From: a virus
Length of the DNA stretch: 64,000 nucleotides
Virus record (IMG/VR): IMGVR_UViG_3300045988_183866
Reading direction: 5' to 3' (one strand)
The notes beneath the pieces are model-generated. The model made no database searches. It had not been told where the DNA came from and saw only the letters and a list, made by a program, of their open reading frames with translations. The position numbers and the translations under genes were made by a program. Shown piece after piece: positions 1-50,498 of this stretch (positions within the stretch are counted from its first letter, which is position 1; each line of letters begins with the position of its first letter).

Positions 1-2
1 TG

Positions 3-6000: not shown

Positions 6001-9000
6001 TACGTGACATTGAGCAGAACAACGAAATGTACCTTGTGAACAACAACTACAACGACTACTATATCGCAGACAAGACTTTCAGCGGTGGTATTTACCGTAC
6101 GACGCTGCGTGCGCAGGTCAAGAGCGTAAGCACCACTTATGGACATGGCTTCAAGAATGTCAAACTTCCGTATGCAGACGATGTCTACTACTGGAATAAG
6201 GGTTCTGATAGCTGGCTGACCATGGAAGGTCTGGTCGAAGACCATAAGACTGCTGCACAGGACGATGAAAAACTCGACCTGAAAGCGAAGAAAACAAACA
6301 ACTATCAGAGCAAGTTCGTTTACAATGTAGTGCCGAGTGAGACGACAGATGCTGGTTCTTACCCCGTATCTTACATTGGTCTGAACGAATTCAACTATGA
6401 TGTGTTGAAGAACTATGTTGTCACGGAAGACCCCGGCTCCATCGAGGTTAAGCCCCGCAAGATTATGATTTCCGTTGACGAAAGCCAGAAGATTTACGGT
6501 ACGACGAACCCGTTCTTCAACTCCACCTTCAAGGTTCTTGGCACAGATGACCAAGGCAATGAGCTGGATGTTTCGGACGAGAACAACTGGACCGTTCTGG
6601 GTGATGACGCTACCGTTGATTACAACAACATGCATCTGATTGGTAATGACACCATCGGTAATGTGGTTGAAGTCGTAAACGGCGCTTCTCGCACCGCTCT
6701 GGCATTCAAGAACGGCACTTCTAATCTGCCTTATCTGACAACCGCTACACAGAGCAGTGATGTAATCTATCAGACGGATGTTCCCGAAGAAGAATGCGCT
6801 TACTGCTTGGAGAAATACAATGAAATGCACAAGGGTCATGAGCATTATCATGACGATGACCATCCGCATACCCATGTTCCCGTAAACGGATATCCTGTAT
6901 CCGTGAACGAAAACACCGGTTACGGCAACACTCTTGGCATCAAGACCGTCACGAACAGTGAAGGACAGGTAGTTTCCAACTACGAACTCGTTTACGAGTC
7001 CAATGTTCTGAAAGTACATCCTCGTCTGATTCGCATTGCGGCTCTGGATGCAACGAAGGCATACGGCGGCACGGAACCCGCATTGAAGTGGACTGTCGAT
7101 GGCGAAATCATTAAGCCTACCAGCGAAATGCTCGGCATCAAGGCAGTTCGTGACAGCGGCGAGAATGTCCGTGACGAAGGCTATACCATCCGTATCTCTT
7201 ACGAAAAGAGCACAGCAAGCAACTATATCGTCGAAACGAACGACGCTAAGATGACCATTACGCCTGTCCCGCTGACAATCGTATTTGGTAATCAGGAGCG
7301 TTACTACGGCGAAGATAACAAAAACGACTACACGCTGACCGTTGTTGGTTTGAAGCACGGCGATACTGCTGATGTTGCTTTGAAGAATAACGATGGCGCA
7401 ACCGCAAAGGTTCTTGAAACCGCAAAGAATACTCTGAGCGATTACATCAACCTGACTTACAATAAGTACACCGATGTCGGTTCCAATTACCTGTATGGCG
7501 ATAAGAGTTACTGCGAAGAGCATACGATTCTCGTTCCTCGTGAAAACGCAGATGGCGGTTATAACTATACGATTGCGAACTACACGCCTGGTGTTCTGAC
7601 TATCAAACCTCGTCCGATGCTGCTGGAAGTCACTGGTTGGCAGAAGGAACTTGGCGATGCTGATAAGGTTCAGGACTTCACCCTGACCGATATGATTACC
7701 CATAATTCCGTAAATGGTCAGCAGAAGCTCGGCGCAGGCAGCCGTATCACGGATGCAAGCGTTGTTGTGAACCCCGATAAAGTTCCCATCGTCTTCAATC
7801 TGGTTCGTGCAGAGGGTGAAGAAGTCGGTTCTTATCCCGTCTACTCCACGCCGCAGGACCGTCAGATTGGAAACCTCGCAGCAAACGACCAGAAACAGCT
7901 TGAGCTGGATAACCCGAACTACGACTTTGAGTACCGTTACGCAAACGACCTCATTGTCAAGCGTCAGGGTCTGATGATTACCGTGGATGATAAGGTTCGC
8001 TATTACGGCGACCGTGTCAACCGCTTCTACGATGGTTCTACCGATTACACCTATCATGTGTTTAAGGTAGAAAACGGCGAGGCTGTTGAAATCACGGCAG
8101 AGGAAGCCGGTATCAACACCAATTCCTTTACCTTTACCCATCTGGATACACAGACCAGCTCCAGCGGCACTTACAAGGATTGCATCAGCCTGTCCGGTGT
8201 CCACAGCACCATCTATGATGATGATGACATCACGATTACCGCTGGCAACCTGACTATCATTCCTCGCCCCGTTTCCGTTATTGCTGAGGATAACACCAAG
8301 GTTTACGGCGACGCTGACCCCGAATTGAAGTACACGCTCCATGACGGTGTCCGTGGCGAAGATGGCAACTACTACATTGAGTACGCAAACGGTCCCGTTC
8401 TCACCGAGAAGGAAGGCGCGGATGTGCCTGTCCAGCCCGGCGACCTCGAAGGTACTGGCGTGACTCGTGAACCCGGTGAGGATGTCTGGACTGGCGAGCA
8501 TTCGTTCGGCAAGGCTTACGCCATCAATGCCAACGATATCAGCCCTGTCAGCAAGGATGGTATCACCAACTACGTTATTACCATGGAGAACGGCAACTTT
8601 ACGATTACTCCGGCTGAGCTGGTTGTTACCGTAAAGGGTGGCTATTCCAAGACCTATGGCGAAGAGAATCCCGCATTTGATGCCGATATTACCGGCTTCA
8701 AGCGTGATGACACGAAGGAAACCGTTCTGAACGGTGAACTTGGCTTCGCTACTCTGTGCTTCGACCTGTCTGACGCTGGCAAGTACATCGTAACTGCTGG
8801 CAACAACAATGAGGATGCGGTGAACCCGGATTGCGTTGTTCTGGAAGACGGTGAAGAGCATATCGGCTCCACTTTCGAAGTCAAGAGCAACACAAACTTC
8901 GAGAAGAACTATGTTATCCGCTATGTCAATGGCGATATCACTGTCAACCCGAAGGAACTGATTGTTCGTATTGACCATAAGGTCAAGACCTACGGCACTG

Positions 9001-12000
9001 CTGACCCGGCATTTACCTTCCATTACGAAGACAATGCTGGCAATGTGATTGGCCTGATTGACCCCGAAAACAGCCCGCTGAATGTTGAGTTGTACCGCAC
9101 CAAGGGTGAAAATGTTGTGCGCGGCGATGTCACTGCAGCAGATTCTCTCAATAAGTGGGGAACTACCCTCTATGATGGTGATTACCTCATTTCCGCAAAG
9201 TACGATACAAACAACAAGAACTATGCCGTTACCGTATACGATGGTTCTCTGAAAATCATCCCCGCAACGCTCACTGTTACGGTCGATGGCGGATACAAGA
9301 CCACCTACGGCGATGAGATTCCCGAATTCACTTATTCCATCACAGGTTTTGTCGGTCGTGACGTTAAGGACGAAACCGGTACCGGTATCAAGGACGATGA
9401 ATCCAAGGTCTCCGGCACTGCTACAATGTACTGCAACGATAACGCTGGCAATCCCGTAACGAATAAGACGAAAGTTGGTAATTATCCCATCAACTACGAT
9501 AGACAGCAGTTGGTTGCTGACAACAGCAATTACAAGTTTATCTATGTTGGCGGTGACCTGACGATTGGTAAGAAACCTATCCATGTGAAGGCAGATGACC
9601 AGCAGAAGGTTTACGGAGAGAAAGACCCCGACCCGCTGACTTGGACGATTACTGACCCCGAAGAGCTGGTCAATCCCGGTGACGAAGACTTCTTCGATAT
9701 CACCACAAAGCGTCCCGGTGCTGATACTGATGACGGTGAGCAGGTAGGCAAGTATCCCATCACCATTGATGGCACTGACCCGTCCGGCAACTACGAAATC
9801 ATTACCACTCCCGGAACTCTGACCATTGTTCCTGCAACCATCGTTGTTACAGTTATTGACGACGAAAAGTATTTCGGCGAAGATAACCCGACACCCAACG
9901 TAACCATTACCGGCTATAAGCGCGGTGACACCATCGATGATATCGGTGGTAAAGATGCGCTCAAGACCAAGACTGATGCAGAGAAGTGGAGCCCTGTTGG
10001 TGAATATCCTGTATCTGCCAAGGATTCTACTTTCCATAACCCGAACTACGATTTCGTTTACATCGATGGTAAGCTGACCGTTAAACCCTTGATTATTAAC
10101 ATCAAGGCAGAAGACGACCGCAAGACCTACGGTGATAACGACCCCGATAAGTTCAATGTTTCCTATACGCTCACGAACGAGAAAGATGAGCCTTACACTC
10201 CGGATAAGGACCTGCGCGATTATATCGACCGTGCCCTGAATCTGGATGCAGCTCGTGTTCCGGGTGAGAATGTTCGTACCGAGAACCCCGGCTATTCCAT
10301 TGTTCCTACCTATACCGAGGTAGATAATATTGAGATTGGCACAGTAACTCCCGGACATTTCTTCATTGACCCGCGTGAGGTAACCATTATTGCAAACTCC
10401 GCAGAAAAGGTATATGACGGCACTCCGTTGACGGAACCCGGCTATACCTACGCTCCGGAACTCGTAGATAACGACCTGCTTGGCATTCACGATAAGATGG
10501 ATTCTGTGACCGTAACCGGTTCTCAGACCGAAGTGGGTTCCAGCAAGAACGTTCCCAGCGATGCAGTTATCATCAACACCGAAGATGGCAGCGGCAGCAA
10601 TGCCAACTACATCATCAAGTATGTGGATGGTACTCTGACCGTTCGCGATAAGGAAATTGTCTCTATCGAGAAATCTGCTGACCGTGAACGCGCTACGGAT
10701 TACGATGTGATTCGCTACACGATTACCGTTACGAATGCGACCAGTCATGACCTGCACAACGTCATCGTTAAAGATACCAACAACTTCGTTGGTGTTCCTG
10801 TCCTGTCTCAGGCAAACGGTGTGACCTATGATGCAGAGAAGGGCGAGTTCGTTATCGCAGAGATTTCCCATCTGCGCGATGAAACCCATACCAATGCTGT
10901 AACGTTCACCTATACCTACACGGTAGACCCGACCGACCACGGCACCAACAACAACGATATCCTCGAAAACAACGCCAAGATTACCGATATGAAGGTAGTC
11001 GAGAGCTATACTGAGAACCCTGATGGCAGCACCACTCCGAACTATACCGAGCCTAACAAGGATTGGTTGGTTGAGACTCCTGATGTTGATGTGGAAATCA
11101 TCCGTCAGAATCTGACCATCGAAAAGAGTGCTGATAAGACTGAGGCTGGCGTAGGTGATGTCGTCACTTACACGCTGAAAGTCACCAATACGGGCAACAC
11201 GAAGCTTGAAAATGTTGTCGTAAAGGATACGAACAACTTCATGGGCGAGCCTGTCGAGAACACGAAGCTCCACTTCGGCTATCGTGTCAACGATGATGGA
11301 ACATGGACAATCACCAGCCTTGGTGTTGGAAAGTCCGTAACCATTACCTATAAGTACACGGTTGTCGCAGATGACCTCGCAAACGGCAAGCTGGATAACA
11401 TTGCTACCGCAACGATTCCTGCTCGCGAAGACCCGACTATTCCTGAAAAACCTGTCGATTCCAACGAAGTAATCGTGCCGCTGTACTACAAGCACCTGAC
11501 GATTGTCAAGTCTGCTGACCGCGACCACGCTTATCCCGGCGAAGTCGTCAAGTATCAGGTCACTGTCACGAACGACGGCACTGTCGATATGACGAATGTT
11601 ACCGTCTCCGATGACACCAATGCTCTGGGTATGTTTATCGTCTCTACCGGCGACGGATATACCTATAACCCCGAAACCAGACTGTTCACCATTCCTGCTC
11701 TGAATGTCGGCGATTCCGTTACGCTGAATTACCTGTATATTGTGCAGAACGGTGACCCCGAAACGATTATCAACGTAGCTACTGCTCACGCTCCCAAGAA
11801 TCCCGATACTGAGATTCCGGGTGACAAGGACATCGAAGAGCCTTCTAAGCCTGTTGAGGTTGATGTGCTCCGTGATGAACTGACCATCGTAAAGAACGCT
11901 GACAAGAGCTTCGTTGATATGAACGGCAATGACACGACCGTAACCTATACTCTGACCGTTAAGAACAGCGGCAACACAAAGCTGACGAATGTTATCGTTA

Positions 12001-15000
12001 CCGATACATCCAACGGCAACGGCACTGTCGAGTATACTGGCGATTTGATGTATGACGGAAACGGCAAGTGGATGATTCCTGAGTTGAACGCAGGCGAATC
12101 CGTTGAAATCACTTATATCTACACTGCTGTGGCAGAGGATATGAACCTCGATAACGGTAACATCGTGAATACGGCTGTTGCTGAGGGCAAGAACCCCGAC
12201 AACAAGACTGTTACGAGCGACCCCGATACTGAGACTGTCCATGTAGGCGAAGTGCCTGACCGCGATATTCGCGTTGTGAAGACTTCTCTTGAATCCAGTG
12301 TGATGATTGGCGATACCATTCACTACACCATTACCGTTACGAACAACGGCACAATGACTGCTCAGAATGTAGTTGTACGCGACTTCAATGACGGCATTGG
12401 TGAAATCAATGCTGCAAGTTCCGACAAGTATACCTATGACGCAGCGACTCATTCCTTCACCATCGCAGAAATTGCGGCTGGTGAGGTCGTTGAGATTCCT
12501 GTCACCTATACCGTACAGGAAGGCGACAAGGGCACCGTAAACAATGCTGCTGTCGAGATTCCGGAAATTCCCGAAATCGAGAAAAAGGCAGATAAACAGA
12601 CCGTAGTGGTTGGCGAAGTGGTGACTTACACCATTACCGTTACCAATACGACTAACGAGACCAAGACGAATGTTGAGGTCAAGGATACGAACAACTTCAC
12701 GGGCGTTATCACGCCTGCCGAAAACACTGATGTTGTAAGCTATATTGGCGACAAGGTCTGGAATATTTCTTCTATCGGCGCTGGTGAGAGCGTAGACATT
12801 GTCTACACCTACACGGTAATGAATGAAGATGCTCCCAATACCATGCTTGTCAATAACGCTGAAATGACATATGTGACGGATTCCGGCAAGGTAAAGATTC
12901 CTTCCAATGAGGTTGATATCCCTGTCATCCCCGAAACTCCCACGCCGGAACATGTCGGACCCACCGTTGTGAAACAGGCAGACAAGGCCATTGCAAACAT
13001 CGGCGATACGGTGCATTACACCGTCGTCATGCACAACAATGACACTGTTGACTATGTGAATGCAGCGCTGCACGACAAGAACAACTTCAACGGCGTTATC
13101 ACGAATGTCAAGAACGGCACTCTGGAATCTGCATCTGCCGGTTCCGCAGTCATTAAGGTTGGTACTATCCCGGCTGGCAAGACTGTCACGGTAGAATATG
13201 ATTACATTGTGCTGAACACCGATGCCGGTAAGGGTCAGGATACCTACAACGAGCTGAAGAATGTGGCTACGCTGCATTACTGGTTCGCTGACGAAAACCA
13301 GACTCCTGAGAATGAAAAGACGAAGCCTTCTAACGAGGTCACCGTCAAGGTTCCCGGCAGTGATGTACCTGTTCCTGTCAACCCGCCCGAGGGCAAGTTG
13401 AAAGTCGAGAAATTCGTAGACAAGAAGAGTGCTTCTGTTGGCGATATGCTGCATTACACCGTTAAGGTGTCTAATGTTGGCGATGGCGAACTGAAAAATA
13501 TTCTGGTCGAAGACTTCTTCGATGGACACGGTAAACTCAACTACATCCCGGCTGTCGGTGTTGTAGTGAACGGTGATGGCACTTACACCATCAACAAACT
13601 GCCTGCCGGTACATTCATGGAGCTCCGCTTCACCTATGTTATCGTGGAAGGCGATGAGCCTGAGGTCCTGAACGCCGCTGTCGTCACGACGCCGCCCGTT
13701 GACCCGCCGCTCGAACCCACCAAGACGGCTGACAAGAAGTTCGCATTTGTCGATGAAATCGTGACTTACACCATCAGCGTGTATAACCCCGATACCAAGG
13801 CAAAGACGAATGTCACTGTCAAGGATACCAATAACTTTGTTGGCAGCATCAATGCCGCCAATACAGATAAGTACACCTATAACGGCGATAGCACTTGGAC
13901 GATTCCGGAAATCGGAGCAGGGGAGACCATCGACATTACCTATACCTACACGGTACAGAGCAATGATGAGAAGCTCCTCGAGAACAAGGCTGATGTGACG
14001 TATTCCGAGAACGGCGATACCGTGAAACTTGATACGCCGACTGTCGATGTGGTCGTACCCGATAAGGGCACTGTCTCCATCCACAAGGAAGCGGACAAGA
14101 AGATGGCTAAGCCGGGTGAGGTCGTCACCTACAATGTCACCGTTACTAACAACAAGGGCTTCGATGTTCACGATGTTGTAGTAACTGATGCCAACAACTT
14201 CGCTGGCGAAATCACTGGCGTTGACGGCGCAGATTACACCTTCGAGAACGGCGAGTTCCATATCGCTGAGATTGCCGCAGGCGCTTCGGTCACTCTGACC
14301 TACACCTACACGGTTGAAATTGGTGATGTGCCTACTCAGATTCTGGAAAACATCGCTACGGCTGATGTTCCCGGCACGAACCCCGAAGACCCGAACAACC
14401 CCGGTCACGGTAAAGACCCGAACAAGCCTATCGATAACGATGAGAAGATTCCTTCGAATCCTGTCGATGTTGAGGTTCCGGGTTCCGAGACTGAAACCAA
14501 GATTCCTGACCTTGTTCTGACAAAGAGTGTGGATAAGAATGAAGCCGTTGTCGGTGATACTCTGAACTACACGATTACTGTCAAGAACAACGGCAAGGGC
14601 GATGCTGAGAATGTCACAGTCAAGGACTTCTTCGACGGCAAGGGCACACTGAACTTCGTGGCTATGGATGGCGTCACCGATAACGGTGATGACAGTTACA
14701 CGATTGCAAGCGTCAAGGCTGGCGAAAGCGTAACGCTCAACTTCACCTATGTGGTAGTTGACGGAGACGCACCTGAGGTTTTGAATGCGGCAGTCATCAC
14801 GACTCCCGAACCGCCTACGGATATTGTGAAGAGCGCAGACAAGCATATCGCTAAGGTTAATGAGATTGTTACCTACACCATTACGGTGAAGAACAATTCC
14901 AAGGACACTTTGACGAATCTGCTGGTAAGCGATACGAACAACTTCAAGGGCGAAATTGAAGGCAAGGATGGCAAGGGCTACACCTACAACGGTGATAAGA

Positions 15001-18000
15001 CTTGGACCATCGCAACGCTCGAATCCGGCAAGTCCATCGACATTACCTACACCTATACGATGCAGGCAAGCGATGAAACTGTTATTGAAAACACTGCCGA
15101 TGTGCGTTATAGCCACAACGGTACTGACTACAATATTCCGTCCAACCCGGTTGATGTTGAGAAGCCTAACGATGGTGTAGTTACCATCTTTAAGACTGCC
15201 GACAAGACCAAGGCTGAACCGAACGAGGTCGTTACCTATACAGTTACGATTCACAACGGTAAGGATTACAACATCAAGAATGTCCGTCTGACTGACGCGA
15301 ACAACTTCGCGGGCAAGATTGAGGGCGTTGACGGTGCTGGCTACAAGTTCATCAACGGCGAATTTGTCATTGACAAGATTCCTGCTGGCGGTGACGCAGT
15401 GGTTCACTACACCTACACAGTCCAGATTGCCGATGTTCCGACCAAGATTCTTGAAAATGTTGCAACGGCTCATGTCCCCGGCAAGAACCCCGGCGACCCT
15501 GACGAGGAGATTCCTTCCAACAAGGTCGATGTTGAGGTTCCCGGTGACGGCACGCACGTTGATGTGCCGGAAGGCAAGCTCGAAATCGTTAAGAGTGTAG
15601 ACAAAACGGAAGCCAAGGTTGGCGATACGCTGAACTACACGATTACGCTGACGAATGTTGGCGGACAGGCAGTCAAGAACGCTGTCGTCAAGGATTTCTT
15701 TGACGGTAACGGTGTCCTGAACTTCGTTCCGATGGACGGTGTGACGGATAACGGTGATTACACCTACACGGTTGCGAATGTGGAGAAGGGTCAGAGCATT
15801 ACGCTCCGCTTCACTTACACGGTCGTTGCCGGAGATGCGCCGATGGTCCTGAACGCTGCTGTTGTGAAAGACCCGACGCCTCCCGTTGACATCGAGAAGA
15901 CCGCAGACAAGCATGTAGCGATGGTCGATGAAGTCGTCAACTATACCATCACGGTGAAGAACACGACTGATAAGACCGTTACCGACCTGCTGGTCAGCGA
16001 CACCAACAACTTTACAGGCGCAATCACCTCTAAAGACAACGCCAAGTACACCTACAATGGCAACCATACTTGGACTATCCCCAGCATCAAGGCTGGTGAG
16101 AGCATCGATATTCTCTACACCTATACGGTGAAGACTACCGACCCCTCTACGCTGGTCAACGAAGCTGATGTTCGCTACACGACCGATGACGGCGAGTATG
16201 TCATCAAGGCAGACCCTGTTGAAGTCGTTGTCCCGAAGGATGGCGAAGTTACGATTGTCAAGAGCGGTGACAAGAAGATTGCAGAGCCCGGTGAGGTCGT
16301 GACCTACACGGTTACGATTCACAACGGTAAGGCGCATGACATCACCAATGTGGTCGTAAGCGATTCCAACAACTTTGCTGGAACGATTACCGGCACGAAT
16401 GGTGTCGGCTACAAGTTCGTTGACGGACACTTTGTAATCGATAAGATTGCTGCTGGTGCAGACGCTGTTCTGACCTACACCTACACGGTGCAGATTGCAG
16501 ATGTACCCACTCACATTCTGGAAAATGTTGCCACGGCACATGTGCCCGGCACGAATCCGGAAGACCCTGAGAATCCCGGACACGGCAAGGACCCGGATAA
16601 ACCGATTGACCCCGATACGGACATTCCGTCCAATAAGGTCGAAGTGGAAGTCCCCGGTTCCGAAGTTGAGACCGAAATTCCGGAAATCTCTATTACCAAG
16701 TCTGTAGATAAGCCTACTGCCAAGATTGGTGATACGCTAAACTACACCGTCACTGTCAAGAACGGCGGTAACGCGGATGCTGAGAATATCCTGATTAAGG
16801 ATTTCTTTGACGGAAACGGAACGCTGAACTTCAAGGCCATGGATGGCGTGACAGATAACGGAGACAACACCTACACTATTTCTACGGTCAAAGCAGGGGA
16901 GAGCGTAAAGCTTCGTTTCAGCTATGTTGTAGTTGAAGGAGACGAACCTCTCGTACTGAACGCCGCAGTAATCAAAGACCCGACACCGCCTGTTGACGTT
17001 GAGAAGGAAGCCGACAAGCACATTGCAAAGGTTGATGAGGTTGTAACCTACACGATTTCCGTGAAGAACACCACTTCTGAGCCTGTTGACAATGTAACTG
17101 TCACCGATACTAACAACTTCAAGGGCGAAATCAAGGCCGAAAACGCTGACAAGTACACTTACAATGGCAATAAGACGTGGACTATCCCGACTATTGCCGC
17201 TGGCGAGACCATCTATATCACCTACACCTATACGATGCAGGCTGAGGATGCCACCGTCATCGAAAACATTGCAAATGTGACTTACAGCAAGGATGGCACA
17301 GATTACAATATCCCCTCCAACCCCGTCGATGTCGAAAAGCCCGATGATGGTGTTGTCACCATCCGCAAGGCTGCAGATAAGACAAAGGCTGAGCCGGGTG
17401 AGGTTGTAACCTATACCGTCACGGTTCATAACGGAAAGAATCACGACATCGAAAACGCTCGTCTGACAGACACCAACAACTTTGCTGGCGAAATCGTAAG
17501 CGTTGACGGTGCAGATTACACCTTCGAGAACGGCGAATTCACAATCAATAAGATTCCCGCAGGCGGTGATGTGGTTATCCACTACACTTATACGGTTGAA
17601 ATTGCTGATGTGCCCACGCAGATTCTCGAAAACATTGCAACAATCCATGTTCCCGGCACGAATCCCGAAGACCCGAATAATCCGGGTCACGGCAAAGACC
17701 CCGAGAAACCCATTGACCCCGATACGGAGATTCCGTCCAACAAGGTTGATGTGGAAGTTCCCGGCTCTGAAACCGAAACAGAGATTCCTGTAATCGAAAT
17801 CACCAAGTCCGTTGATAAGGCAGAAGCCAAGGTTGGCGATACGCTCAACTATACGGTTACTGTCGCCAACAAGGGCAAGGTTGATGCGGAAAATGTTGTT
17901 GTCGAAGACTTCTTCGATGGCAACGGAACGCTCAACTTCGTGCCCATGGATGGCGTTGCGGATAACGGCGACAACTCCTATACCATCAGCACTGTAAAGG

Positions 18001-19646
18001 CTGGCGAGAGCGTAACGCTTAACTTCACCTATGTGGTAGTTACCGCTGATGCTCCTAAGGTCCTGAACGCTGCTGTTGTGAAAGACCCGACACCGCCTAT
18101 CGATGTTGAAAAGGATGCCGATAAGTATATTGCTAAGGTGACGGATGTTGTGACCTACACCATTACGGTGAAGAACACGACAGACGAAACCGTAAACGAT
18201 ATCACTGTCGCAGACCATAACAACTTTGCGGGTGATGTTACGGCTGAGAGTTCTAACCGCTATACCTATAACGGAGACGGTACTTGGACTATCGGTCATC
18301 TGGATGCCGGTGAGGCTCTTGATATCGTTTATACCTATACGGTAGAGACGACCGATGAGAGCGTTATGGAAAATACCGCAACCATTAAGTACACGCACGA
18401 TGGCGAGCAGTATAATATCCCGTCCAATACAGTCGATGTGAAGAAGCCTGATGATGGCGTTGTCACCATCTGGAAGTCTGCAAACAAGACTGTCGCAAAG
18501 CCGGGTGAGACTGTCACCTATACCGTAACGGTACACAATGGTAAAGACCACGATATTCAGAATGCTGCTCTGACTGATGAGAATAACTTCTCCGGAAGCA
18601 TTTTCGCAGTGGAAGGCGCTGGTTATCACTATGAGAATGGTGTATTCACCATCGACACGATTCCTGCTGGCGGCGATGTGGTTGTCCACTACGCTTATAC
18701 TGTCGGTATCGCCGATGTGACTACGCACATCCTCGAAAACGTAGCGACGATTCATGTTCCCGGTACGAACCCTGAAGACCCGGAGAATCCCGGACAGGGT
18801 AAAGACCCGACGAAACCGATTGACCCTGATACGGATATTCCGTCCAACAAGGTCGATGTGGAAGTTCCGGGTTCCGGCACGGAAACTGACATCCCGCTCG
18901 AAAAGAGCCTCACGATTGTGAAGAGTGCTGACAAGACGAAAGTCAATGTCGGTGAAACCATCAATTATCGTGTGGTAGTAACCAATACCGGTGAAGTAGA
19001 CCTTGTCAATGTAACCGTAAAGGACAACAATGATGGCGCAAGCCATATTGAAGCCCAGAACGGTGATGGATATACTTACAATAGCGCAACGACAACGTTC
19101 ACTATTGCTCGTATCCCTGTTGGCGAATCCTTCACTCTGACCTATTCTTATGTTGCCGTTGACGCGGATGCCGGACACGATGTCATTAACGTGGCTGTCG
19201 CTAAGGCTCCGGGTCAGAATCCCGAAGACCCCGAGAATCCGGGTCATGGTAAGGACCCGTCCAAGCCGATTGATGAAGATGTAGAGAAACCTTCCAACGA
19301 GGTGAAAGTCCCTGTTGTGAAACCCTCTACTCCCACAACGCCTGACGAGCCTAAGCCGACTCCGACTCCTGACAACCCGAAGCCCACTCCGACCCCTGTT
19401 CCTACTGAGAAGCCAAAGACCCCGCCGATTGGCTGGCTCGATATCTTCAAGGTAGACGGCAAGCCCTTCTCCCTCTTCTCTATCTTCACGAGCAACAAGA
19501 AGACGGGTATCGGATTTGCACAGAGCATTGTTGGTCTGGTAGCAATGGTTGGCATTGGCGTCGCTGCTCTGGTGGTAGTAAACCACAAGCGCAAGAAGGA
19601 CGAAAACGACAACAAAGATAACCATAAGGATGATTCCGCTGAATAA
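3..19646 (+). CDS. Giant repetitive cell-surface adhesin, 5'-partial (>6514 aa). The N-terminal half contains a Gly-rich segment and ~90-aa modules with a K-x-Y-G-x-x-D-P motif (MBG/YDG-like). The C-terminal half is an array of DUF11-like 'conserved repeat' domains. The C-terminus is a Pro/Thr stalk, then NKKTG, a TM helix and a Lys-rich tail.
   Basis: The frame is open from nt 3 with no stop upstream of the ATG at 102, so the gene begins outside the window. Periodic motifs TIxPRPxxV...KxYGxxDP occur through aa ~2100-3500. Repeats LTIxKSADKxxAxVGDxxxYTITVxNtGN..L.NVxVxDTNNFxG occur from nt ~10650. The protein ends ..TSNKKTGIGFAQSIVGLVAMVGIGVAALVVVNHKRKKD. Minus-strand ORFs over this span are shadows. 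Confidence 0.9.
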   Translation, partial: SSGGSHGPFLKTTIYGSKSLRIRANGGYTYEEAMVNPDIKHRTPTNWPYKFSVGQTIPAALTHSNGQVAFDDIWVQYDGCASDFTDAGLGKLYEPTVDGRSGTNNFYLAGSGNFVMNQIGHLPLIGVGGANKASPQEMQLCVNTLMWISQRKQCEVCAADQADQQMTHFVHRVNAANAKKILTALANGGSYWYPLSDCYELMEDLDLTKLGFDSTTWKPIKNFTGHWNSKYFDVKVPKDGALFDNTTGDLGAYRTGDGNDWNLGTDRLKGWDTVFKDSGNSSPSVRTTGIARIYGKLSDAKLFNDGQVHEGYTVHIRYEDNTALLQEGDDFSCVVNNVDQYCISNLPCIYVGGKTILRARVYDKAGNEVTKYGPIVAKVPPHFWNDCETVPLELLTIEATPIENYRYWEGETTKVLEGSGIIYNQPISNESVTWYYRVVDLRNTSNALSDWVKIGHYGQFTTEDGAVTGIIKTPVFHDGNDGVYNYPHSSVDVQLQMLAYTGNAIQLRTDYEVEGKTYSTIDPGVITPEASGIIQIEERPMSMTQAPNQRVMTQDEATFVFETDYWKGLDDKGYSYDVQYKDPYDDDWQTLATSVTFGGTYTLNTVDNSQVNKVDIEAHTVDTLAKGKETASMIHDNKWLPADFWRPDGFTDQQCAQKHTTITLTLHAADYNWSGYYFRIVASYRFNEKRTKVENSYSAIGDADNAGFDTSRYGLLQVDAPFVSATMLEARALMMQEHNSEGDATGDFGQNYWSVETTQDQVDNWNASRGDSNNPLISDKNVAVYTTTITFSPSKLTESGNRILIPVLQWGFQDDLNSESTDYKPVINPININGYANNGNGLTTENYKDWANIVKTRYDINTDDSSVMKQVVDAIETEHSGSPFGKFTAYITIDDIKPVEDTMLNGQPFDINSAYAKWSITTSLHIESATNPMDFGTEHFYFQCKPYLEYIRGYNSTKLKSQTITNTLAHNFDYVNGGIDEDNTDTGAELWLDYNISIHANERNLVSCGVDKHSIFMYPELTIEAPNGLRYIMSRYQIVNEFPYGKHRDTSRTVFNQSDHLSVNLGTQYRGQMTTVTRYDMNGNPSQIDVQGKTMADLGISLDERGYLDKNNEDYAPYLDHGYALWSDYSYPKEIWQWFWRNAIQYHCYDMEEFDGTNEQVFFYIDEKNVRAADKSFKANDGNNPTSSWTAPFDATYQIDLWGAGGGNASMTDGISGNSGSHTIITADIKEGTTLYFVAGGAGGGGSTGSGSGGSGGYNGGGSGGVGAVFYDCYKGGGDPDHSYHSNSPIGFGGGGGATTVAFGLIGDGQLKNYGDGSPMFGVAGGGSGAAIISGNGYTTRGVGGSGSNNSGQRYHCALKEDKVFSDGYEYHHGDICGWTYSGTHSSDIKMQREDEEGYNNTLHENGGGSGWQSASTDGALRGSSYAASVGTNLDNGNIIIKANVTGANQLNDGAGSGIGQAGRAKIKVVDLNKRLYRRVGKNAMDIGFEDANECTPTRAKVMLTVANKMYDGNQLTVTAHVVWDGDTDAGIDEQEILRGVNITYSNNESPNITYPTNATTDSKKKPLVRTGSYTATATYTGKYEVTFCWENTKPGKTYVVRGESTTPDEYVSGNGNVVYFDIYPRPLHLYSYDNNKIYDNISTAKVSDIKIKAATADSGIVHGDTVALNSTLAYGYYCENYAPEDFAKTSFRESIHTGLHSIKTVTILELINNPFDNYYIASEDFTGTINPRPLYVHSQYHDVNKYKWNYDGNSNDIGNGKYLTDTTVYDNQNVTIEQAYEMILAGKQENIDITRYTKTEQDNYQNTVVNPNNIKVYDSYYNANIGEEGQGNIYIDNITNYDSVELNAQTYVGSYADSNAGEQLTGYDANGDNGVIKEDRYNGLSTNTIRHLPYSVKYSYSTTTPQVGQKMTVTIAVTNKDTGYGLAAQNNYVAPVAIQNLRLKSRFAGNGPITLKSTNGIRMNQQGTEFYIDTIPVGGTVNIEFEYTVQDIDDTNALVRDIEQNNEMYLVNNNYNDYYIADKTFSGGIYRTTLRAQVKSVSTTYGHGFKNVKLPYADDVYYWNKGSDSWLTMEGLVEDHKTAAQDDEKLDLKAKKTNNYQSKFVYNVVPSETTDAGSYPVSYIGLNEFNYDVLKNYVVTEDPGSIEVKPRKIMISVDESQKIYGTTNPFFNSTFKVLGTDDQGNELDVSDENNWTVLGDDATVDYNNMHLIGNDTIGNVVEVVNGASRTALAFKNGTSNLPYLTTATQSSDVIYQTDVPEEECAYCLEKYNEMHKGHEHYHDDDHPHTHVPVNGYPVSVNENTGYGNTLGIKTVTNSEGQVVSNYELVYESNVLKVHPRLIRIAALDATKAYGGTEPALKWTVDGEIIKPTSEMLGIKAVRDSGENVRDEGYTIRISYEKSTASNYIVETNDAKMTITPVPLTIVFGNQERYYGEDNKNDYTLTVVGLKHGDTADVALKNNDGATAKVLETAKNTLSDYINLTYNKYTDVGSNYLYGDKSYCEEHTILVPRENADGGYNYTIANYTPGVLTIKPRPMLLEVTGWQKELGDADKVQDFTLTDMITHNSVNGQQKLGAGSRITDASVVVNPDKVPIVFNLVRAEGEEVGSYPVYSTPQDRQIGNLAANDQKQLELDNPNYDFEYRYANDLIVKRQGLMITVDDKVRYYGDRVNRFYDGSTDYTYHVFKVENGEAVEITAEEAGINTNSFTFTHLDTQTSSSGTYKDCISLSGVHSTIYDDDDITITAGNLTIIPRPVSVIAEDNTKVYGDADPELKYTLHDGVRGEDGNYYIEYANGPVLTEKEGADVPVQPGDLEGTGVTREPGEDVWTGEHSFGKAYAINANDISPVSKDGITNYVITMENGNFTITPAELVVTVKGGYSKTYGEENPAFDADITGFKRDDTKETVLNGELGFATLCFDLSDAGKYIVTAGNNNEDAVNPDCVVLEDGEEHIGSTFEVKSNTNFEKNYVIRYVNGDITVNPKELIVRIDHKVKTYGTADPAFTFHYEDNAGNVIGLIDPENSPLNVELYRTKGENVVRGDVTAADSLNKWGTTLYDGDYLISAKYDTNNKNYAVTVYDGSLKIIPATLTVTVDGGYKTTYGDEIPEFTYSITGFVGRDVKDETGTGIKDDESKVSGTATMYCNDNAGNPVTNKTKVGNYPINYDRQQLVADNSNYKFIYVGGDLTIGKKPIHVKADDQQKVYGEKDPDPLTWTITDPEELVNPGDEDFFDITTKRPGADTDDGEQVGKYPITIDGTDPSGNYEIITTPGTLTIVPATIVVTVIDDEKYFGEDNPTPNVTITGYKRGDTIDDIGGKDALKTKTDAEKWSPVGEYPVSAKDSTFHNPNYDFVYIDGKLTVKPLIINIKAEDDRKTYGDNDPDKFNVSYTLTNEKDEPYTPDKDLRDYIDRALNLDAARVPGENVRTENPGYSIVPTYTEVDNIEIGTVTPGHFFIDPREVTIIANSAEKVYDGTPLTEPGYTYAPELVDNDLLGIHDKMDSVTVTGSQTEVGSSKNVPSDAVIINTEDGSGSNANYIIKYVDGTLTVRDKEIVSIEKSADRERATDYDVIRYTITVTNATSHDLHNVIVKDTNNFVGVPVLSQANGVTYDAEKGEFVIAEISHLRDETHTNAVTFTYTYTVDPTDHGTNNNDILENNAKITDMKVVESYTENPDGSTTPNYTEPNKDWLVETPDVDVEIIRQNLTIEKSADKTEAGVGDVVTYTLKVTNTGNTKLENVVVKDTNNFMGEPVENTKLHFGYRVNDDGTWTITSLGVGKSVTITYKYTVVADDLANGKLDNIATATIPAREDPTIPEKPVDSNEVIVPLYYKHLTIVKSADRDHAYPGEVVKYQVTVTNDGTVDMTNVTVSDDTNALGMFIVSTGDGYTYNPETRLFTIPALNVGDSVTLNYLYIVQNGDPETIINVATAHAPKNPDTEIPGDKDIEEPSKPVEVDVLRDELTIVKNADKSFVDMNGNDTTVTYTLTVKNSGNTKLTNVIVTDTSNGNGTVEYTGDLMYDGNGKWMIPELNAGESVEITYIYTAVAEDMNLDNGNIVNTAVAEGKNPDNKTVTSDPDTETVHVGEVPDRDIRVVKTSLESSVMIGDTIHYTITVTNNGTMTAQNVVVRDFNDGIGEINAASSDKYTYDAATHSFTIAEIAAGEVVEIPVTYTVQEGDKGTVNNAAVEIPEIPEIEKKADKQTVVVGEVVTYTITVTNTTNETKTNVEVKDTNNFTGVITPAENTDVVSYIGDKVWNISSIGAGESVDIVYTYTVMNEDAPNTMLVNNAEMTYVTDSGKVKIPSNEVDIPVIPETPTPEHVGPTVVKQADKAIANIGDTVHYTVVMHNNDTVDYVNAALHDKNNFNGVITNVKNGTLESASAGSAVIKVGTIPAGKTVTVEYDYIVLNTDAGKGQDTYNELKNVATLHYWFADENQTPENEKTKPSNEVTVKVPGSDVPVPVNPPEGKLKVEKFVDKKSASVGDMLHYTVKVSNVGDGELKNILVEDFFDGHGKLNYIPAVGVVVNGDGTYTINKLPAGTFMELRFTYVIVEGDEPEVLNAAVVTTPPVDPPLEPTKTADKKFAFVDEIVTYTISVYNPDTKAKTNVTVKDTNNFVGSINAANTDKYTYNGDSTWTIPEIGAGETIDITYTYTVQSNDEKLLENKADVTYSENGDTVKLDTPTVDVVVPDKGTVSIHKEADKKMAKPGEVVTYNVTVTNNKGFDVHDVVVTDANNFAGEITGVDGADYTFENGEFHIAEIAAGASVTLTYTYTVEIGDVPTQILENIATADVPGTNPEDPNNPGHGKDPNKPIDNDEKIPSNPVDVEVPGSETETKIPDLVLTKSVDKNEAVVGDTLNYTITVKNNGKGDAENVTVKDFFDGKGTLNFVAMDGVTDNGDDSYTIASVKAGESVTLNFTYVVVDGDAPEVLNAAVITTPEPPTDIVKSADKHIAKVNEIVTYTITVKNNSKDTLTNLLVSDTNNFKGEIEGKDGKGYTYNGDKTWTIATLESGKSIDITYTYTMQASDETVIENTADVRYSHNGTDYNIPSNPVDVEKPNDGVVTIFKTADKTKAEPNEVVTYTVTIHNGKDYNIKNVRLTDANNFAGKIEGVDGAGYKFINGEFVIDKIPAGGDAVVHYTYTVQIADVPTKILENVATAHVPGKNPGDPDEEIPSNKVDVEVPGDGTHVDVPEGKLEIVKSVDKTEAKVGDTLNYTITLTNVGGQAVKNAVVKDFFDGNGVLNFVPMDGVTDNGDYTYTVANVEKGQSITLRFTYTVVAGDAPMVLNAAVVKDPTPPVDIEKTADKHVAMVDEVVNYTITVKNTTDKTVTDLLVSDTNNFTGAITSKDNAKYTYNGNHTWTIPSIKAGESIDILYTYTVKTTDPSTLVNEADVRYTTDDGEYVIKADPVEVVVPKDGEVTIVKSGDKKIAEPGEVVTYTVTIHNGKAHDITNVVVSDSNNFAGTITGTNGVGYKFVDGHFVIDKIAAGADAVLTYTYTVQIADVPTHILENVATAHVPGTNPEDPENPGHGKDPDKPIDPDTDIPSNKVEVEVPGSEVETEIPEISITKSVDKPTAKIGDTLNYTVTVKNGGNADAENILIKDFFDGNGTLNFKAMDGVTDNGDNTYTISTVKAGESVKLRFSYVVVEGDEPLVLNAAVIKDPTPPVDVEKEADKHIAKVDEVVTYTISVKNTTSEPVDNVTVTDTNNFKGEIKAENADKYTYNGNKTWTIPTIAAGETIYITYTYTMQAEDATVIENIANVTYSKDGTDYNIPSNPVDVEKPDDGVVTIRKAADKTKAEPGEVVTYTVTVHNGKNHDIENARLTDTNNFAGEIVSVDGADYTFENGEFTINKIPAGGDVVIHYTYTVEIADVPTQILENIATIHVPGTNPEDPNNPGHGKDPEKPIDPDTEIPSNKVDVEVPGSETETEIPVIEITKSVDKAEAKVGDTLNYTVTVANKGKVDAENVVVEDFFDGNGTLNFVPMDGVADNGDNSYTISTVKAGESVTLNFTYVVVTADAPKVLNAAVVKDPTPPIDVEKDADKYIAKVTDVVTYTITVKNTTDETVNDITVADHNNFAGDVTAESSNRYTYNGDGTWTIGHLDAGEALDIVYTYTVETTDESVMENTATIKYTHDGEQYNIPSNTVDVKKPDDGVVTIWKSANKTVAKPGETVTYTVTVHNGKDHDIQNAALTDENNFSGSIFAVEGAGYHYENGVFTIDTIPAGGDVVVHYAYTVGIADVTTHILENVATIHVPGTNPEDPENPGQGKDPTKPIDPDTDIPSNKVDVEVPGSGTETDIPLEKSLTIVKSADKTKVNVGETINYRVVVTNTGEVDLVNVTVKDNNDGASHIEAQNGDGYTYNSATTTFTIARIPVGESFTLTYSYVAVDADAGHDVINVAVAKAPGQNPEDPENPGHGKDPSKPIDEDVEKPSNEVKVPVVKPSTPTTPDEPKPTPTPDNPKPTPTPVPTEKPKTPPIGWLDIFKVDGKPFSLFSIFTSNKKTGIGFAQSIVGLVAMVGIGVAALVVVNHKRKKDENDNKDNHKDDSAE
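6440..10650 (+). repeat. In-frame array of ~90-aa MBG/YDG-like modules (KxYGxxDP motif) within the giant adhesin gene
   Basis: Recurring peptides include KIYGTTNPFFNSTFKVLG, KAYGGTEPALKWTVDG, RYYGEDNKNDYTLTVVG, KVYGDADPELKYTLHDG, KTYGEENPAFDADITGF, KTYGTADPAFTFHYED, KVYGEKDPDPLTWTITD and KTYGDNDPDKFNVSYTL. Confidence 0.7.
14370..19000 (+). repeat. Tandem coding super-repeat with ~1110-nt period and about 5 copies. Each unit holds three DUF11-like domains plus a PGTNPEDPENPGHGKDPxKPIDPDTxIPSNKVDVEVPGSETE linker.
   Basis: The near-identical linker peptide PGTNPEDP(E/N)NPGHGKDP recurs at nt ~14370, 15475 (degenerate), 16540, 17650, 18760 and 19210. Peptides between linkers align at ~75-90% identity, e.g. 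KSVDKxEAKVGDTLNYTxTV.N.G..DAENVxVKDFFDGNGTLNF. Confidence 0.85.
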
Positions 19647-19660
19647 GCGGTAAAACAATA

Positions 19661-19697
19661 GAGCGGTGGTTCGAAAGAGCCGCCGCTCTTTTTTTTG
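19661..19697 (+). terminator. Rho-independent terminator after giant adhesin gene 1
   Basis: GC hairpin gagcggtgg-ttcgaaaga-gccgccgctc followed by T9. Confidence 0.7.
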
Positions 19698-19729
19698 CGT
19701 AAAAAACTTCTAATTTTCAGAATAATTAT

Positions 19730-20073: not shown

Positions 20074-23000
20074 ATGCAGAAACCTCGTAAGCGGTTTTTG
20101 AGTGCGATTGTCGCCGTAGCAATGTGCCTGTCTCAGTTTGCTCCTGTCACTGCTTATGCAGTGGAGAGCGCGAGTGGAATCACGCAGAGTGAAGAAGCTC
20201 CGAAGGAAACTGATGCGCTCAGCACTACGACAACAAACTCCGACTCTTCCGCTACTACTCCCGCGCCGAAAAGCGATGTTACCGACACAGCAAGTTCCGC
20301 GTCCAGCGACACTTCTGTGACGAGCGATGTTTCTTCTGAGGCTACAAGTCAGGCGGGGTCTGAAACGACCACTGCCTACGCAAACAGTGCTGCCTCTGAT
20401 ACTGGTGCAAGCACCAGCACTTCCAGCGAAGCTTCTACCACTGGCAGCATCAGTGAAGCAGCACAGGCATTTATCGATGCGGCTAACGCCCTTGTAAGCC
20501 GTAAAGATGAAATTCTGACTGCTGCAAACAACTTCGGTCTTGCAAGCAAGGCATGGCAGGCTGACAAGGAAAACGCGGTTCTTGATGCGATGGTCACGCG
20601 TCGCACTGAGGAACTGGATGCAGTTTATGACTGGGAGCCCATTGAAGACATGTATTATTCTCTGAGCGAGGATGAGCAGGTCGCCGAGCCCGTCATGAAT
20701 GCATACCTTGACATGTCTGACCTGTATCTGCAGGTTTGCGACCGTCAGGAAAACCCCGTAGACAACAGCGGTGCCAGCGCGTTTGATGGCGGCGGTTCTA
20801 CGACTGTCATCGGGGACTATCAGGCAATCACCGCTGCTGAGACTGGTAAGCAGATTGCCGCAGGCACTGGTATTCAGTATACCAAGATTAGCGGTCAGGA
20901 GAATGTTATTCGCATTCTGCCTCAGACTGTTACCTACACCTACGGTGACTCCTTCAAGTCTAAGGGTCTGACCATCGAATACAGCACTGCTGATTCCCGT
21001 ACTCCTCAGGAAGTCCAGAAGGATATTCAGGCAGCTATCGACGGTCTGAGCTTCATCATGTACGCTCCTGCTGATGGTGACGGCCAGAATCCTACAGACA
21101 TTCATTGCAATCACGGTACTTATCCGACTTATGTTGATACGGGTGCCACAAGCGTTACTGTGAATGGTCTAAATTACACCATCATTGACGGTTCCAACTT
21201 GGATTCTTCCAAGAACATCCGCAATGACACGGGCGTGACTATCAACAAGCGTCAGATTTTCATTGTCCCTCATACCACTTATGTTACGAAGGGCAATACC
21301 ATCAGCCAGATTAACTACACCGTTATGGATACCAATGGTGGTCTGGTTGACGGCGACCTGCTTCCTGCGGATGTTCTGACCACAGAGAACTTTGATAAGG
21401 ACACTACCGGTTCTTACAAAATCATCTTAGGTTCCTCTGCGAAGAGCAACACGAACTACAACGTCGACATCCAGCCTAACACCGGCGATGTGTATGTTGT
21501 CGTTTCCGAAAAGACTCTGACCCTGACTCCCGTATTTGTCTTTAAGGGCAATGATGGCGTACAGACGACTGGCAGCAAAGCCACTCGTCAGTATGGTCAG
21601 CAGAACCCTCAGGTTGACTTCGTGATTACCGGCTGGTCTGATACTGATAAGACGAATTTCGAGTATAAGACCAATAATGAACACAAGTCCAATGCGGTTG
21701 CTCTGAAAGAAATGCTTGGTCTGAGCGGTGAACCCACCGTTGTTCTGCCCAGCATCACCTCTGCTCCCGGTGGCTATACTGTTACAATCGGCAATATCCA
21801 GACGAATGCGCCTATCAATGGTTATAACATCAACCTTGCTACCGCAACGTTTGAAATTACCAAGCGTAATGTAACCATCACCAACAATCAAATTGATGCC
21901 ATCTATGGTGAGGCTGAAAAGGGCAAGAATTCCACCATCACCTTGGACGCTGTTGCTTATAACGGTGCTGCTCAGGCAGTATCTTCTGAAGCACGTATTG
22001 TTACCGGTAAAGACATCACCGCCGATGACGGTGTGAATAAACTGGTCAGCATGGTTCTGACAACTCAGCGTCAGGATATTGACAACAAGAATGTTGGCGA
22101 ATATCCGATGACCGTTGAAGTTCCTCCTGCATGTACTGCTTACTATGACGTCAAGGTCATCAACAGCAAGTACATCATCCATCCTGCAATGCTGACTGTC
22201 ACTCTCGATGACCTGTCTGCAATGTATGGTGCTGCTCGTTCCGGCAAGATTAAATCCATCGAAGGTTTCAAGCTGAACGATACACAGGCAAGCATCGGCT
22301 TGACCGAGGACAAGCTTGGCTTTACTATGGTAGATGCGGCTGGCAACAGCGGCATTCCTACAACTGCCAATGTCGGCGAGTACAATGTTACCGCAAGCGT
22401 TATGGGCGCTTCTCAGGAGCGTTGGTCTCCTGATTGGGACATGAAAGCCGATGGTAAGGACTATGACCGTTTCGACAACTACCTCGTTCGCTTCGTTGAC
22501 AGCAAGCTGACCATCACCAAGCGTCCTATCGCCATCAATGTGATGGGTGGTCAGACGAAGGTTTACGGCGACAGTGATGCCAAGGGCGGCGTTGCCTTTA
22601 CTCTTGACCCCGTCAATGGCAAGGGTGGCCGTGTTGGTTCCGACTTTGCTGGCTGCGTTGTGACTCGTGAGGTCGGCGAGACTGTTGGCTCTTACGCTTA
22701 CAGCGATGCTCAGTTCCAGACTGCTGAAATCGCCAAGAACTACGACATCACCTTCAATGCTCCCGATAAGTACACTATCACCAAGCGTACTCTGACCATC
22801 ACCGTTCCGAACCGTGAGCGTCTGTATGGCGCAGAGAATCCCAGCGATGCCGACATTACCGGCGCACTGGAATACAAGAACTTCGCAAGCAACGATGAAA
22901 TTGGCATCCATGATACTGTCGCTTCTCTGGGCGGCACTGTCACCATCAAGTATGGCGTTGATAATACCGTTGGTAAGCTGACTGGTGTCGGTACCTATCC

Positions 23001-49929: not shown

Positions 49930-49944
49930 CGGGAGGGCAACACA

Positions 49945-50199
49945 ATGGCAATTTATGAAATCATTCTGTGCATCTTGATTCTGTTGGTTTCTGTTCTGGT
50001 TTGTGCGGTTACGCTTTCCATGGATAAGGCCGACAAGAACAGTCTTAGTGTTATCACCGGAATCAGTGATACAATGCGCTCGAATGCTAAAGACAGCACG
50101 AAAACGTCCGCAAATAAACTGGTTGCTGTATGTACAGCTATTCTGCTTGTTATCGCAATCATCATGTTCGTAGTAACCGGAGTAGGAGGTGCGGCATGA
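49945..50199 (+). CDS. SecG-like small two-TM membrane protein (Asp5/SecG-like)
   Basis: 84 aa. TM1 IILCILILLVSVLVCAV, a polar loop DKADKNSLSVITGISDTMRSNAKD (cf. SecG KSAGLSGAISGGAEQLFG) and TM2 AVCTAILLVIAIIMFVV. It sits directly after secY2. Confidence 0.55.
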   Translation: MAIYEIILCILILLVSVLVCAVTLSMDKADKNSLSVITGISDTMRSNAKDSTKTSANKLVAVCTAILLVIAIIMFVVTGVGGAA

Positions 50200-50447
50200 A
50201 AGATAAACTGAAAAAGGTAGGAACGACTATTGCGAATTTCGTGAAGGCAATTCCTTCTTTCGTCAAGAGCACGCCTAAGAAGCTTCACAATTTGGTTGCA
50301 CCCAAAAATGTGACTTGGCCGAGTATGCACAACACGCTCCATCGAACCGGAGCAGTTCTTGTTGTGAGTGCTGTATCCGCCGTTATTATTGGCATTATGG
50401 ATGCGGCATACGCTCTGTTGCTTCACGTTCCGTTCCTGTTCGTTTAA
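50196..50447 (+). CDS. SecE-like small membrane protein (Asp4/SecE-like)
   Basis: The ATG overlaps the upstream stop (ATGA), and the RBS aggaggtg is present. KKLHNLVAPKNVTWPSMHNTLHRTGAVLVVSAVSAVIIGIMDAAYALL matches the SecE signature (kkVtWPsrkE + single TM). Confidence 0.55.
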   Translation: MKDKLKKVGTTIANFVKAIPSFVKSTPKKLHNLVAPKNVTWPSMHNTLHRTGAVLVVSAVSAVIIGIMDAAYALLLHVPFLFV

Positions 50448-50461
50448 AATACTGCCCCGGT

Positions 50462-50498
50462 AGGCAACCTGTCTGCCGGGGTCTTTTTTATAAAGGAG
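50462..50498 (+). terminator. Rho-independent terminator ending the secY2-secG-secE-like operon
   Basis: Hairpin ccccggtagg-caacctgtct-gccgggg followed by T6. Confidence 0.6.

Follow-up and report, generated by a model that had tools for sequence, protein, structure and literature searches.

The window (a stretch of DNA of 64,000 nucleotides [nt] from IMG/VR virus record IMGVR_UViG_3300045988_183866, analysed at its full length) carries a giant surface-protein gene with a long array of DUF11 (CLIPPER) domains, the greater part of which is arranged as a tandem super-repeat of three-domain units. This array, the protein that contains it and the constancy of its unit number are the subject of this report; positions are those of the window unless a related locus (designated by an L number) is named. 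With a hidden Markov model (HMM) derived from this sequence, a contiguous series of 23 DUF11 domains is delimited at 10653-19214, essentially the 10650-19150 given in a preliminary description of the window. Pfam DUF11 (PF01345) matches the array in 23 stretches (E 5.6e-241, 784 bits against a cut-off of 24.6), and the related models DUF7507 and TIGR01451 match it too. The plan of the array is seven diverged single domains, then five triples, then one terminal domain:

1..19646, plus strand: giant surface-protein gene, 5' end cut by the window edge, 6,514 codons visible from an internal ATG at 102
10653..13283, plus strand: seven diverged single DUF11/CLIPPER domains (10653-10994, 11106-11423, 11490-11798, 11874-12194, 12261-12566, 12561-12878, 12957-13283)
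13392..14504, plus strand: super-repeat unit 1, 371 amino acids (aa), domains A, B and C with a long linker from 14370
14505..15572, plus strand: super-repeat unit 2, 356 aa, domains A, B and C with a short linker (15-aa deletion) from 15477
15573..16679, plus strand: super-repeat unit 3, 369 aa, linker from 16545
16680..17786, plus strand: super-repeat unit 4, 369 aa, linker from 17652, modelled with AlphaFold2
17787..18902, plus strand: super-repeat unit 5, 372 aa, linker from 18759, orthologous to unit 6 of a six-unit lineage described below
18903..19214, plus strand: terminal (23rd) DUF11/CLIPPER domain, outside any triple, delimited with the self-built HMM
19209..19427, plus strand: last long linker (19209-19319) and Pro/Thr-rich spacer (19320-19427), the latter with a 27-nt repeat in 2.1 copies at 19341-19398

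Fifteen of the 23 domains make up the five tandem A-B-C triples (13392-18902), with periods of 1113, 1068, 1107 and 1107 nt. In a self-blastn comparison the repeat appears as strong parallel diagonals, offset by 1113, 2181, 3288 and 4389 nt and scoring up to 1182 bits, and a repeat search returns five in-register copies spaced by 1107-1113, 1068, 1107 and 1107 nt. The super-repeat of about five copies proposed earlier is thus real and far beyond chance, and its units have the proposed content: three DUF11 domains, here called types A, B and C, and the linker that had been quoted for them. Its position requires correction, from 14370-19000 to five full units at 13392-18902, because one A-B-C triple already lies 5' of the first linker. 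Occurrences of the linker motif begin exactly at 14370, 15477, 16545, 17652, 18759 and 19209, and the linker of unit 2 is 15 aa shorter than those of the other units. Being limited to periods of up to 500 nt, Tandem Repeats Finder did not report the array; self-blastn and the repeat search were used for this purpose.

Three residues (K7, D41 and N106) are invariant in 23/23 domains, among eight invariant alignment columns altogether. A profile of the domain alignment matches PDB 9IFR, a solved CLIPPER domain (E 1.1e-5): the Lys and Asn of 9IFR align with the invariant K and N, and the Asp of its 'LNDT' with the invariant D. The K-to-N spacing in the 9IFR chain is 91 residues, in agreement with PMC12617251. 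In that study DUF11, the stalk domain of fibrillar adhesins, was renamed CLIPPER, and an intramolecular Lys-Asp-Asn isopeptide bond was shown in structure 9IFR (PMC12617251). The AlphaFold2 model of unit 4 is all-beta and consists of three beta-sandwich domains (predicted local distance difference test score [pLDDT] 90.6, predicted template modelling score [pTM] 0.81); a CnaA-like Ig beta-sandwich is the fold that membership of the CLIPPER family predicts for each of the 23 domains. With this three-domain rod as the query, Foldseek returned only generic proteins with multiple immunoglobulin (Ig)-like domains (template modelling score [TM] 0.2-0.27), and phmmer searches of PDB gave no match for one unit or for the N-terminal regions of the giant protein.

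The units are less alike in DNA than the preliminary description had stated. Whole-unit identity is 60-71% in DNA and 54-71% in protein, with 40-50% at third codon positions; by blastn the units are 66-68% identical, and 300-nt pieces of them 60-77%. Mean DNA identity per segment is 0.64 for domain A, 0.61 for domain B, 0.67 for domain C and 0.75 for the linker. The reported figure of more than 75% fits only the last part of domain C and the linker: this is the only part with 72-86% identity, and 14% of 100-nt windows have at least 75%. Exact in-register tracts common to two units of the window reach 31 nt at most. Between these paralogous units the proportion of synonymous differences (pS) is 0.65-0.74 and the ratio of nonsynonymous to synonymous divergence (dN/dS) is 0.10-0.20. 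Where two units have the same residue, pS is 0.66, compared with 0.78 expected for random codon choice under the gene's own usage; the DNA similarity is therefore mostly a by-product of protein conservation. Because blocks of several domains were duplicated together, neighbouring domains stay dissimilar (25-42% identical in protein) and same-type domains three positions, or one period, apart are similar (54-75%). Judged from these comparisons, the A-B-C triple was duplicated long ago, and synonymous sites between its copies are near saturation.

These values bear on an alternative that follows from the preliminary description, in which the array is an active contingency locus, with strain-to-strain, within-population, phase or antigenic variation generated by frequent unequal crossing-over of near-identical repeats of 1.1 kb. 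The linkers are one point in its favour, for their pS (0.56) is below that of the domains (~0.70); they are less saturated and therefore leave room for some past conversion. Units that are 60-71% identical, share no tract longer than 31 nt and are nearly saturated at synonymous sites nevertheless argue against it. Between lineages, orthologous units have a dN/dS of 0.06-0.10, which indicates purifying selection and not antigenic diversification; the suggested antigenic variation is contradicted by this ratio, and nothing points to an on/off switch of the kind that phase variation would involve.

The number of units was surveyed in relatives of the window, with the start of the adjoining giant gene (gene 2, described below) as an anchor and 10-kb flanks. 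The array was obtained from 51 loci, and units were called by a segment-by-segment map together with linker spacing. Lineage A, that of the window, was defined by 97-99% protein identity to an N-terminal query of gene 2, and its sister, lineage B, by 82-84%. All 24 distinct sequences of lineage A have units 1-2-3-4-5 (24/24), even though some are diverged by up to ~5%. Six units are present in 15/16 distinct sequences of lineage B, with one deviating. Units 1-3 are 93-97% identical between the lineages, unit 4 is 82% identical, and unit 5 of the window is 85% identical to unit 6 of lineage B. The extra unit of lineage B, its unit 5, is only 73-76% identical to its own neighbours compared with 82-85% for orthologues; the extra unit therefore predates the lineage split and the difference between five and six units is old. 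It was probably the lineage of the window that lost a unit, as far as these identities can indicate. A single-crossover origin of the five-unit from the six-unit state was considered and dropped, as sliding-window identities show a patchwork with no one clean breakpoint. Divergence at synonymous sites (dS) between the lineages is uneven along the array (compared with L007 and L006, 0.13 in units 1 and 3, 0.26 in unit 2, 0.89 in unit 4 and 0.76 in the last unit), a pattern that points to a more recent exchange between lineages in the 5' part of the array than in the 3' part.

Elsewhere in the family there are traces of more recent change. Units 5 and 6 of lineage B share identical tracts of 81-93 nt. 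L047 is a distant relative, whose gene 2 product is 53% identical to that of the window in its first 500 aa. It has the same plan of 7 + 5x(A-B-C) + 1 domains, but all its linkers are short; its outermost units correspond to those of the window, first to first and last to last, and identity between its interior units 2 and 4 is 88%, including an exact run of 294 nt. The likeness of these interior units reads as the usual turnover of interior repeats, the units having been independently duplicated or converted. Such tracts suggest conversion or recent duplication and, with the difference of one unit between the lineages, are what a contingency locus would lead one to expect. That the extra unit is older than the lineage split, that five units are retained throughout lineage A and that one sequence in 16 deviates in lineage B weigh on the other side, and we consider frequent variation of this kind quite improbable. 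The predicted copy-number variation between strains therefore holds to the extent that two lineages differ by one in-register unit, but lineage A is constant. The array has likewise been recombinogenic in an old change between five and six units, in the duplication or conversion in L047 and in one probable deletion (L045, below), but at its present identity and tract lengths it offers little for recombination to act upon.

Four contigs among ~50 deviate from these plans, three of them in register (L019, L038 and L045) and one out of frame (L031):

L019, 6.8 kb, 2.8x k-mer coverage: unit 3 joined to unit 5 at a 33-nt identical tract, the longest that those two units share
L038, 9.5 kb: unit 5 joined to unit 6 at a 93-nt identical tract
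L031, 8 kb: unit 4 joined out of frame to the terminal domain, with ~4 nt of homology
L045, 137 kb: one unit missing, junction at the linker start, where identity to any sampled parent extends over 14 nt or less

These internal deletions count in favour of a contingency locus. The joins in L019 and L038, however, occur at tracts as long as common assembly k-mers, so that a mis-join is possible, and recombination and a de Bruijn mis-join explain them equally well. In L045 the tract is shorter than a k-mer artefact would require, and this deletion is therefore probably real. The comparison of structural variants across the ~50 contigs, which had been proposed as a check, thus yields rare deletions; occasional recombination is plausible, but frequent variation is not.

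The same contigs raise the question of whether the array structure or its copy number is itself an artefact, collapsed or expanded in short-read metagenome assemblies. Contigs L002, L031, L038 and L050 begin inside the array, and the L019 and L038 joins lie at the longest identity tracts, which makes the assembly hazard noted in the preliminary description plausible for such cases. In lineage A, by contrast, each unit is distinct and differs from the others by 29-40%, leaving nothing to collapse; 24 independent assemblies agree on five units in the same order, and 15 agree on six. An artefactual array is extremely unlikely, and a published range of protein lengths, given below, fits five and six units.

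The giant gene extends beyond the window. Its frame is open from base 3 and its stop is at 19646. In six related loci (L052-L057) the open reading frame (ORF) continues for 2400 nt upstream of the position of the window edge, so that the gene, previously given as 19.5 kb, is cut at the left edge and has a total length of ~21.9-22.0 kb in relatives. The full protein in the lineage of the window is ~7,314 aa (800 + 6,514), or 7,324 aa from the contig coordinates of L057 and L009. In 6/6 loci that reach the start (L052-L057), the N-terminus is MQKGKTWQRVASAVLAVMMTMSTFSSTIAYA followed by AEP, a typical Sec signal peptide, and the ATG lies behind an AAAGGAG ribosome-binding site and a promoter-like site, TTGACT...TGGCATAAT. 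Directly upstream of the giant gene in L057 (5945-7324) is a gene for a 459-aa protein with three Big_2 Ig-like domains that may belong to the surface module. The N-terminal part of the giant protein includes a glycine-rich region of ~270 aa (GGAGGGGSTGSGSGGSGGYNGGGSGG..., window 3609-4409) with no family or structure match. Within the MBG region listed below, ~4.6 kb upstream of the main array, there is a lone DUF11-like domain (5706-6017, aa 1869-1972; 27 bits with the self-built HMM). The remaining features of the surface module and of its presumptive export machinery are:

4302..10650, plus strand: region of MBG (YGX-type) domains in the giant protein, Pfam MBG_2, E 6.1e-65, 7 stretches
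19494..19601, plus strand: cell-wall sorting signal, with NKKTG at 19494-19508, a hydrophobic helix at 19509-19580 and a charged tail, NHKRKKD, at 19581-19601
19660..19699, plus strand: terminator-like hairpin of 13 pairs followed by a T-run, directly 3' of the giant gene
20074..28017, plus strand: second giant surface-protein gene (gene 2), 2,647 aa, with a signal peptide, MBG domains, NYKTG at 27850-27864, a hydrophobic helix and KKKK
48589..52652, plus strand: secretion and anchoring cluster (SecY, SecG-like, SecE, trigger-factor-like peptidyl-prolyl isomerase [PPIase], sortase B homologue)
48589-49929, plus strand: SecY, E 8e-87
49945-50199, plus strand: SecG-like protein, weak SecG match
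50130-50447, plus strand: SecE, E 7e-8
50506-51669, plus strand: trigger-factor-like PPIase, adjoining the sortase B homologue
51681-52652, plus strand: sortase B homologue, phmmer against PDB 5B23, E 7.5e-12

The C-terminus of the giant protein has the order Pro/Thr-rich spacer, SNKKTG, 24-residue hydrophobic helix, NHKRKKD. The motif N-x-K-T-G is kept in 44/44 intact tails of relatives; it presumably corresponds to sortase B motifs such as NPKTG, and cleavage at it is a prediction. The sortase itself was missed by Pfam and was picked up only by phmmer against PDB. Gene 2 has its own promoter-like site (19901-19929, TTGACT-17-CATATT with an upstream TG), very similar to the TTGACT...TGGCATAAT site of the giant gene, and a ribosome-binding site at 20060-20065. 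A start of gene 2 at GTG 20011 was rejected, ATG 20074 being the true start. L047 agrees with the lineage of the window in having NYKTG as the sorting motif of gene 2, whereas the six-unit lineage (L006, L005) has QAPTG. From the stop of the giant gene to the start of gene 2 there are 428 nt in the lineage of the window; in the six-unit lineage this spacer is ~515 or ~791 nt, owing to a 276-nt indel (L006 and L008 compared with L005 and L007).

All related contigs are of human-gut origin. Among them are IMG/VR viral genomes, 89-389 kb long, and 42 contigs from human-gut metagenomes, the longest of 374 kb. No relatives were found in 185,579 species genomes, and megablast of window positions 28-52 kb against plasmid and phage collections gave no match. 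The only named match is a partial MBG protein of Ruthenibacterium lactatiformans (36% identity). Most neighbouring ORFs have no Pfam match, and the recognisable genes are scattered:

31242-32777, 34446-34964, 38533-39792 and 54962-55645, and L108 13314-20563: flotillin/Band_7, phage-type Dam, ParM/Alp7A-like actin, PIN, dCMP deaminase, nonspecific endonuclease and HNH
62378-63841: ORF matching phrog_12834 (E 8e-67), 40% identical to hypothetical proteins of SPbeta-like Staphylococcus phages, with weaker matches in Clostridium and Fusobacterium phages

A recently described class of element agrees closely with these features. 'Hodor' conjugative megaplasmids are human-gut elements of 211-389 kb, originally classed with huge phages (Yuan et al., bioRxiv 2026, PMC12934698). 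They encode a giant uncharacterised protein of 7309-7704 aa with a neighbour of ~2642 aa, the two genes being co-transcribed, and carry a SecY/SecG/SecE/trigger factor/sortase B cluster and ParM (PMC12934698). They also have Rep_3, ParA/B/M and a type IV secretion system, and no terminase except in inserted prophages (PMC12934698). The window and its relatives share with them the human-gut source, contigs of up to 389 kb, MBG domains, signal peptides, C-terminal sorting signals, ParM, the filing in viral databases and the SecY/SecG/SecE/trigger factor/sortase B cluster. The sizes also correspond: we compute 7,324 aa for the five-unit and 7,699 aa for the six-unit giant protein (the latter from L055 and L006), compared with the published 7309-7704 aa, and 2,647 aa for the neighbour, compared with ~2642 aa. 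The published range is thus explained by a difference of one unit, five versus six. Loci of the six-unit lineage have a GC content ~2.5 points higher, and the window probably belongs to the lower-GC Hodor group, G2. The label 'S-layer' used in the Hodor paper may correspond to the DUF11 repeats; DUF11, tandem repeats and a cause of the length range all go unmentioned in its main text (PMC12934698).

The classification of the window as viral suggests another origin, namely that the gene belongs to a huge phage and that its product is a virion fibre or decoration whose Ig-like repeats bind the host or mucus. Relatives are indeed filed as IMG/VR viral genomes of 89-389 kb, the ORFs nearby are mostly orphans, Dam, dCMP deaminase, HNH and nonspecific endonuclease genes are present, and two ORFs match PHROG families without known function. 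The Sec signal peptide, the sorting signal with its membrane helix and the nearby sortase B, SecYEG and trigger factor are, however, the architecture of a cell-wall protein and not of a virion component. Neither giant protein has a PHROG match (searches of segments of both in NCBIfam and PHROGs gave nothing besides DUF11), a tblastn search of 50,697 phage records with one unit yielded a single weak match (28%), and the corresponding genomes in PMC12934698 have replication, partition and type IV secretion genes and, prophages apart, no terminase. Together with the Hodor paper, the two targeting signals (signal peptide and sorting signal) and the sortase led us to drop a phage origin, to which we give hardly any credence.

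It is very probable, in our view, that a giant secreted, wall-anchored fibrillar adhesin, carried by a Hodor megaplasmid of a Gram-positive gut bacterium, has this repeat as its stalk, and that the unit number rarely changes. The protein would be exported through Sec, possibly aided by the plasmid's own SecYEG and trigger factor, and anchored in the wall, via its C-terminal N-x-K-T-G, by the sortase B encoded nearby. Its N-terminal head would sit at the far end of a rod, probably more than 100 nm long, which probably promotes cell-cell contact for plasmid transfer. Changes in unit number would arise, rarely, by in-register unequal recombination or by slippage at short identity tracts.

Several observations weigh against this stalk model or parts of it. 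For an adhesive (ligand-binding) head, the N-terminal 2,250 aa gave no match in Pfam, PHROGs, NCBIfam and PDB sequence searches. The isopeptide bonds in all 23 domains are predicted from conserved residues, and NKKTG is without the proline of the classical sortase B motif NP(Q/K)(T/S)(N/G/S). A hairpin and a separate promoter-like site between the giant genes are at odds with the co-transcription reported in PMC12934698. The identification of the window as a piece of a Hodor megaplasmid rests on its agreement with the published description. Finally, 3/4 of the deletion variants are indistinguishable from assembly errors.

A further proposal, which we regard as tentative and rather unlikely, is that the unit number is a lineage-specific setting of adhesin length: five in the lower-GC and six in the higher-GC Hodor group, with a reshuffled interior in distant relatives. 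If so, length would be tuned to the thickness of the host envelope or capsule or to donor-recipient contact, and the array would be a slow 'molecular ruler' and not a phase switch. The rare in-register deletions (~2-8% of assemblies) would then be real standing variation under selection.

For the stalk model as a whole, the result is an anatomy for a protein that is called uncharacterised in PMC12934698: a CLIPPER stalk with a period-3 super-repeat and an N-x-K-T-G signal, encoded beside SecYEG, trigger factor and sortase B. The 23-domain stalk, the super-repeat of five or six units, the N-x-K-T-G motif and the copy-number survey are new relative to the main text of that paper. No new mechanism is revealed: the stalk evolves slowly, is of an ordinary kind and belongs to an adhesin of gut megaplasmids of a known class.

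Comparable proteins include the CLIPPER adhesins (PF01345, 9IFR, PMC12617251), which have the same Lys/Asp/Asn triad, tandem domains from the middle to the C-terminus, a signal peptide and a sorting signal. The protein described here differs in its period-3 super-repeat, in the conserved linker of 30-45 aa after each third domain and in its megaplasmid carrier, and its bonds are predicted.

PrgB/Asc10 of pCF10/pAD1 are aggregation substances, sortase-anchored adhesins of Gram-positive conjugative plasmids that are thought to aid donor-recipient contact. The giant protein resembles them as a surface adhesin on a conjugative plasmid with a predicted sortase anchor. It has no sequence relation to them, however, is about five times larger and carries a putative sortase-B-type signal instead of LPXTG; the function suggested here is a proposal.

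In the super-repeats of titin, blocks of different Ig-like domains were likewise duplicated together, whereas the protein described here is bacterial, extracellular and, by prediction, isopeptide-locked, with a period of three domains. Wright et al. are said to have formulated, in 2005, the rule that neighbouring domains stay dissimilar, and the dissimilarity of neighbours in the array may be linked to the avoidance of misfolding.

The alpha C/Rib proteins of group B Streptococcus, the G5-E repeats of SasG/Aap, Esp and Bap have repeats that are almost identical in DNA and vary in number between close isolates. These too are wall-anchored Gram-positive proteins with tandem Ig-like repeats, in which the number of units sets the length of the stalk. 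The array of the window differs in that its units are 60-71% identical and fixed at five in 24/24 sequences of lineage A. As ~40 distinct natural sequences illustrate, a tandem repeat that is alarming at the protein level can be genetically stable once its DNA has diverged, a distinction that is useful for judging repeat-rich adhesin genes in metagenome assemblies.

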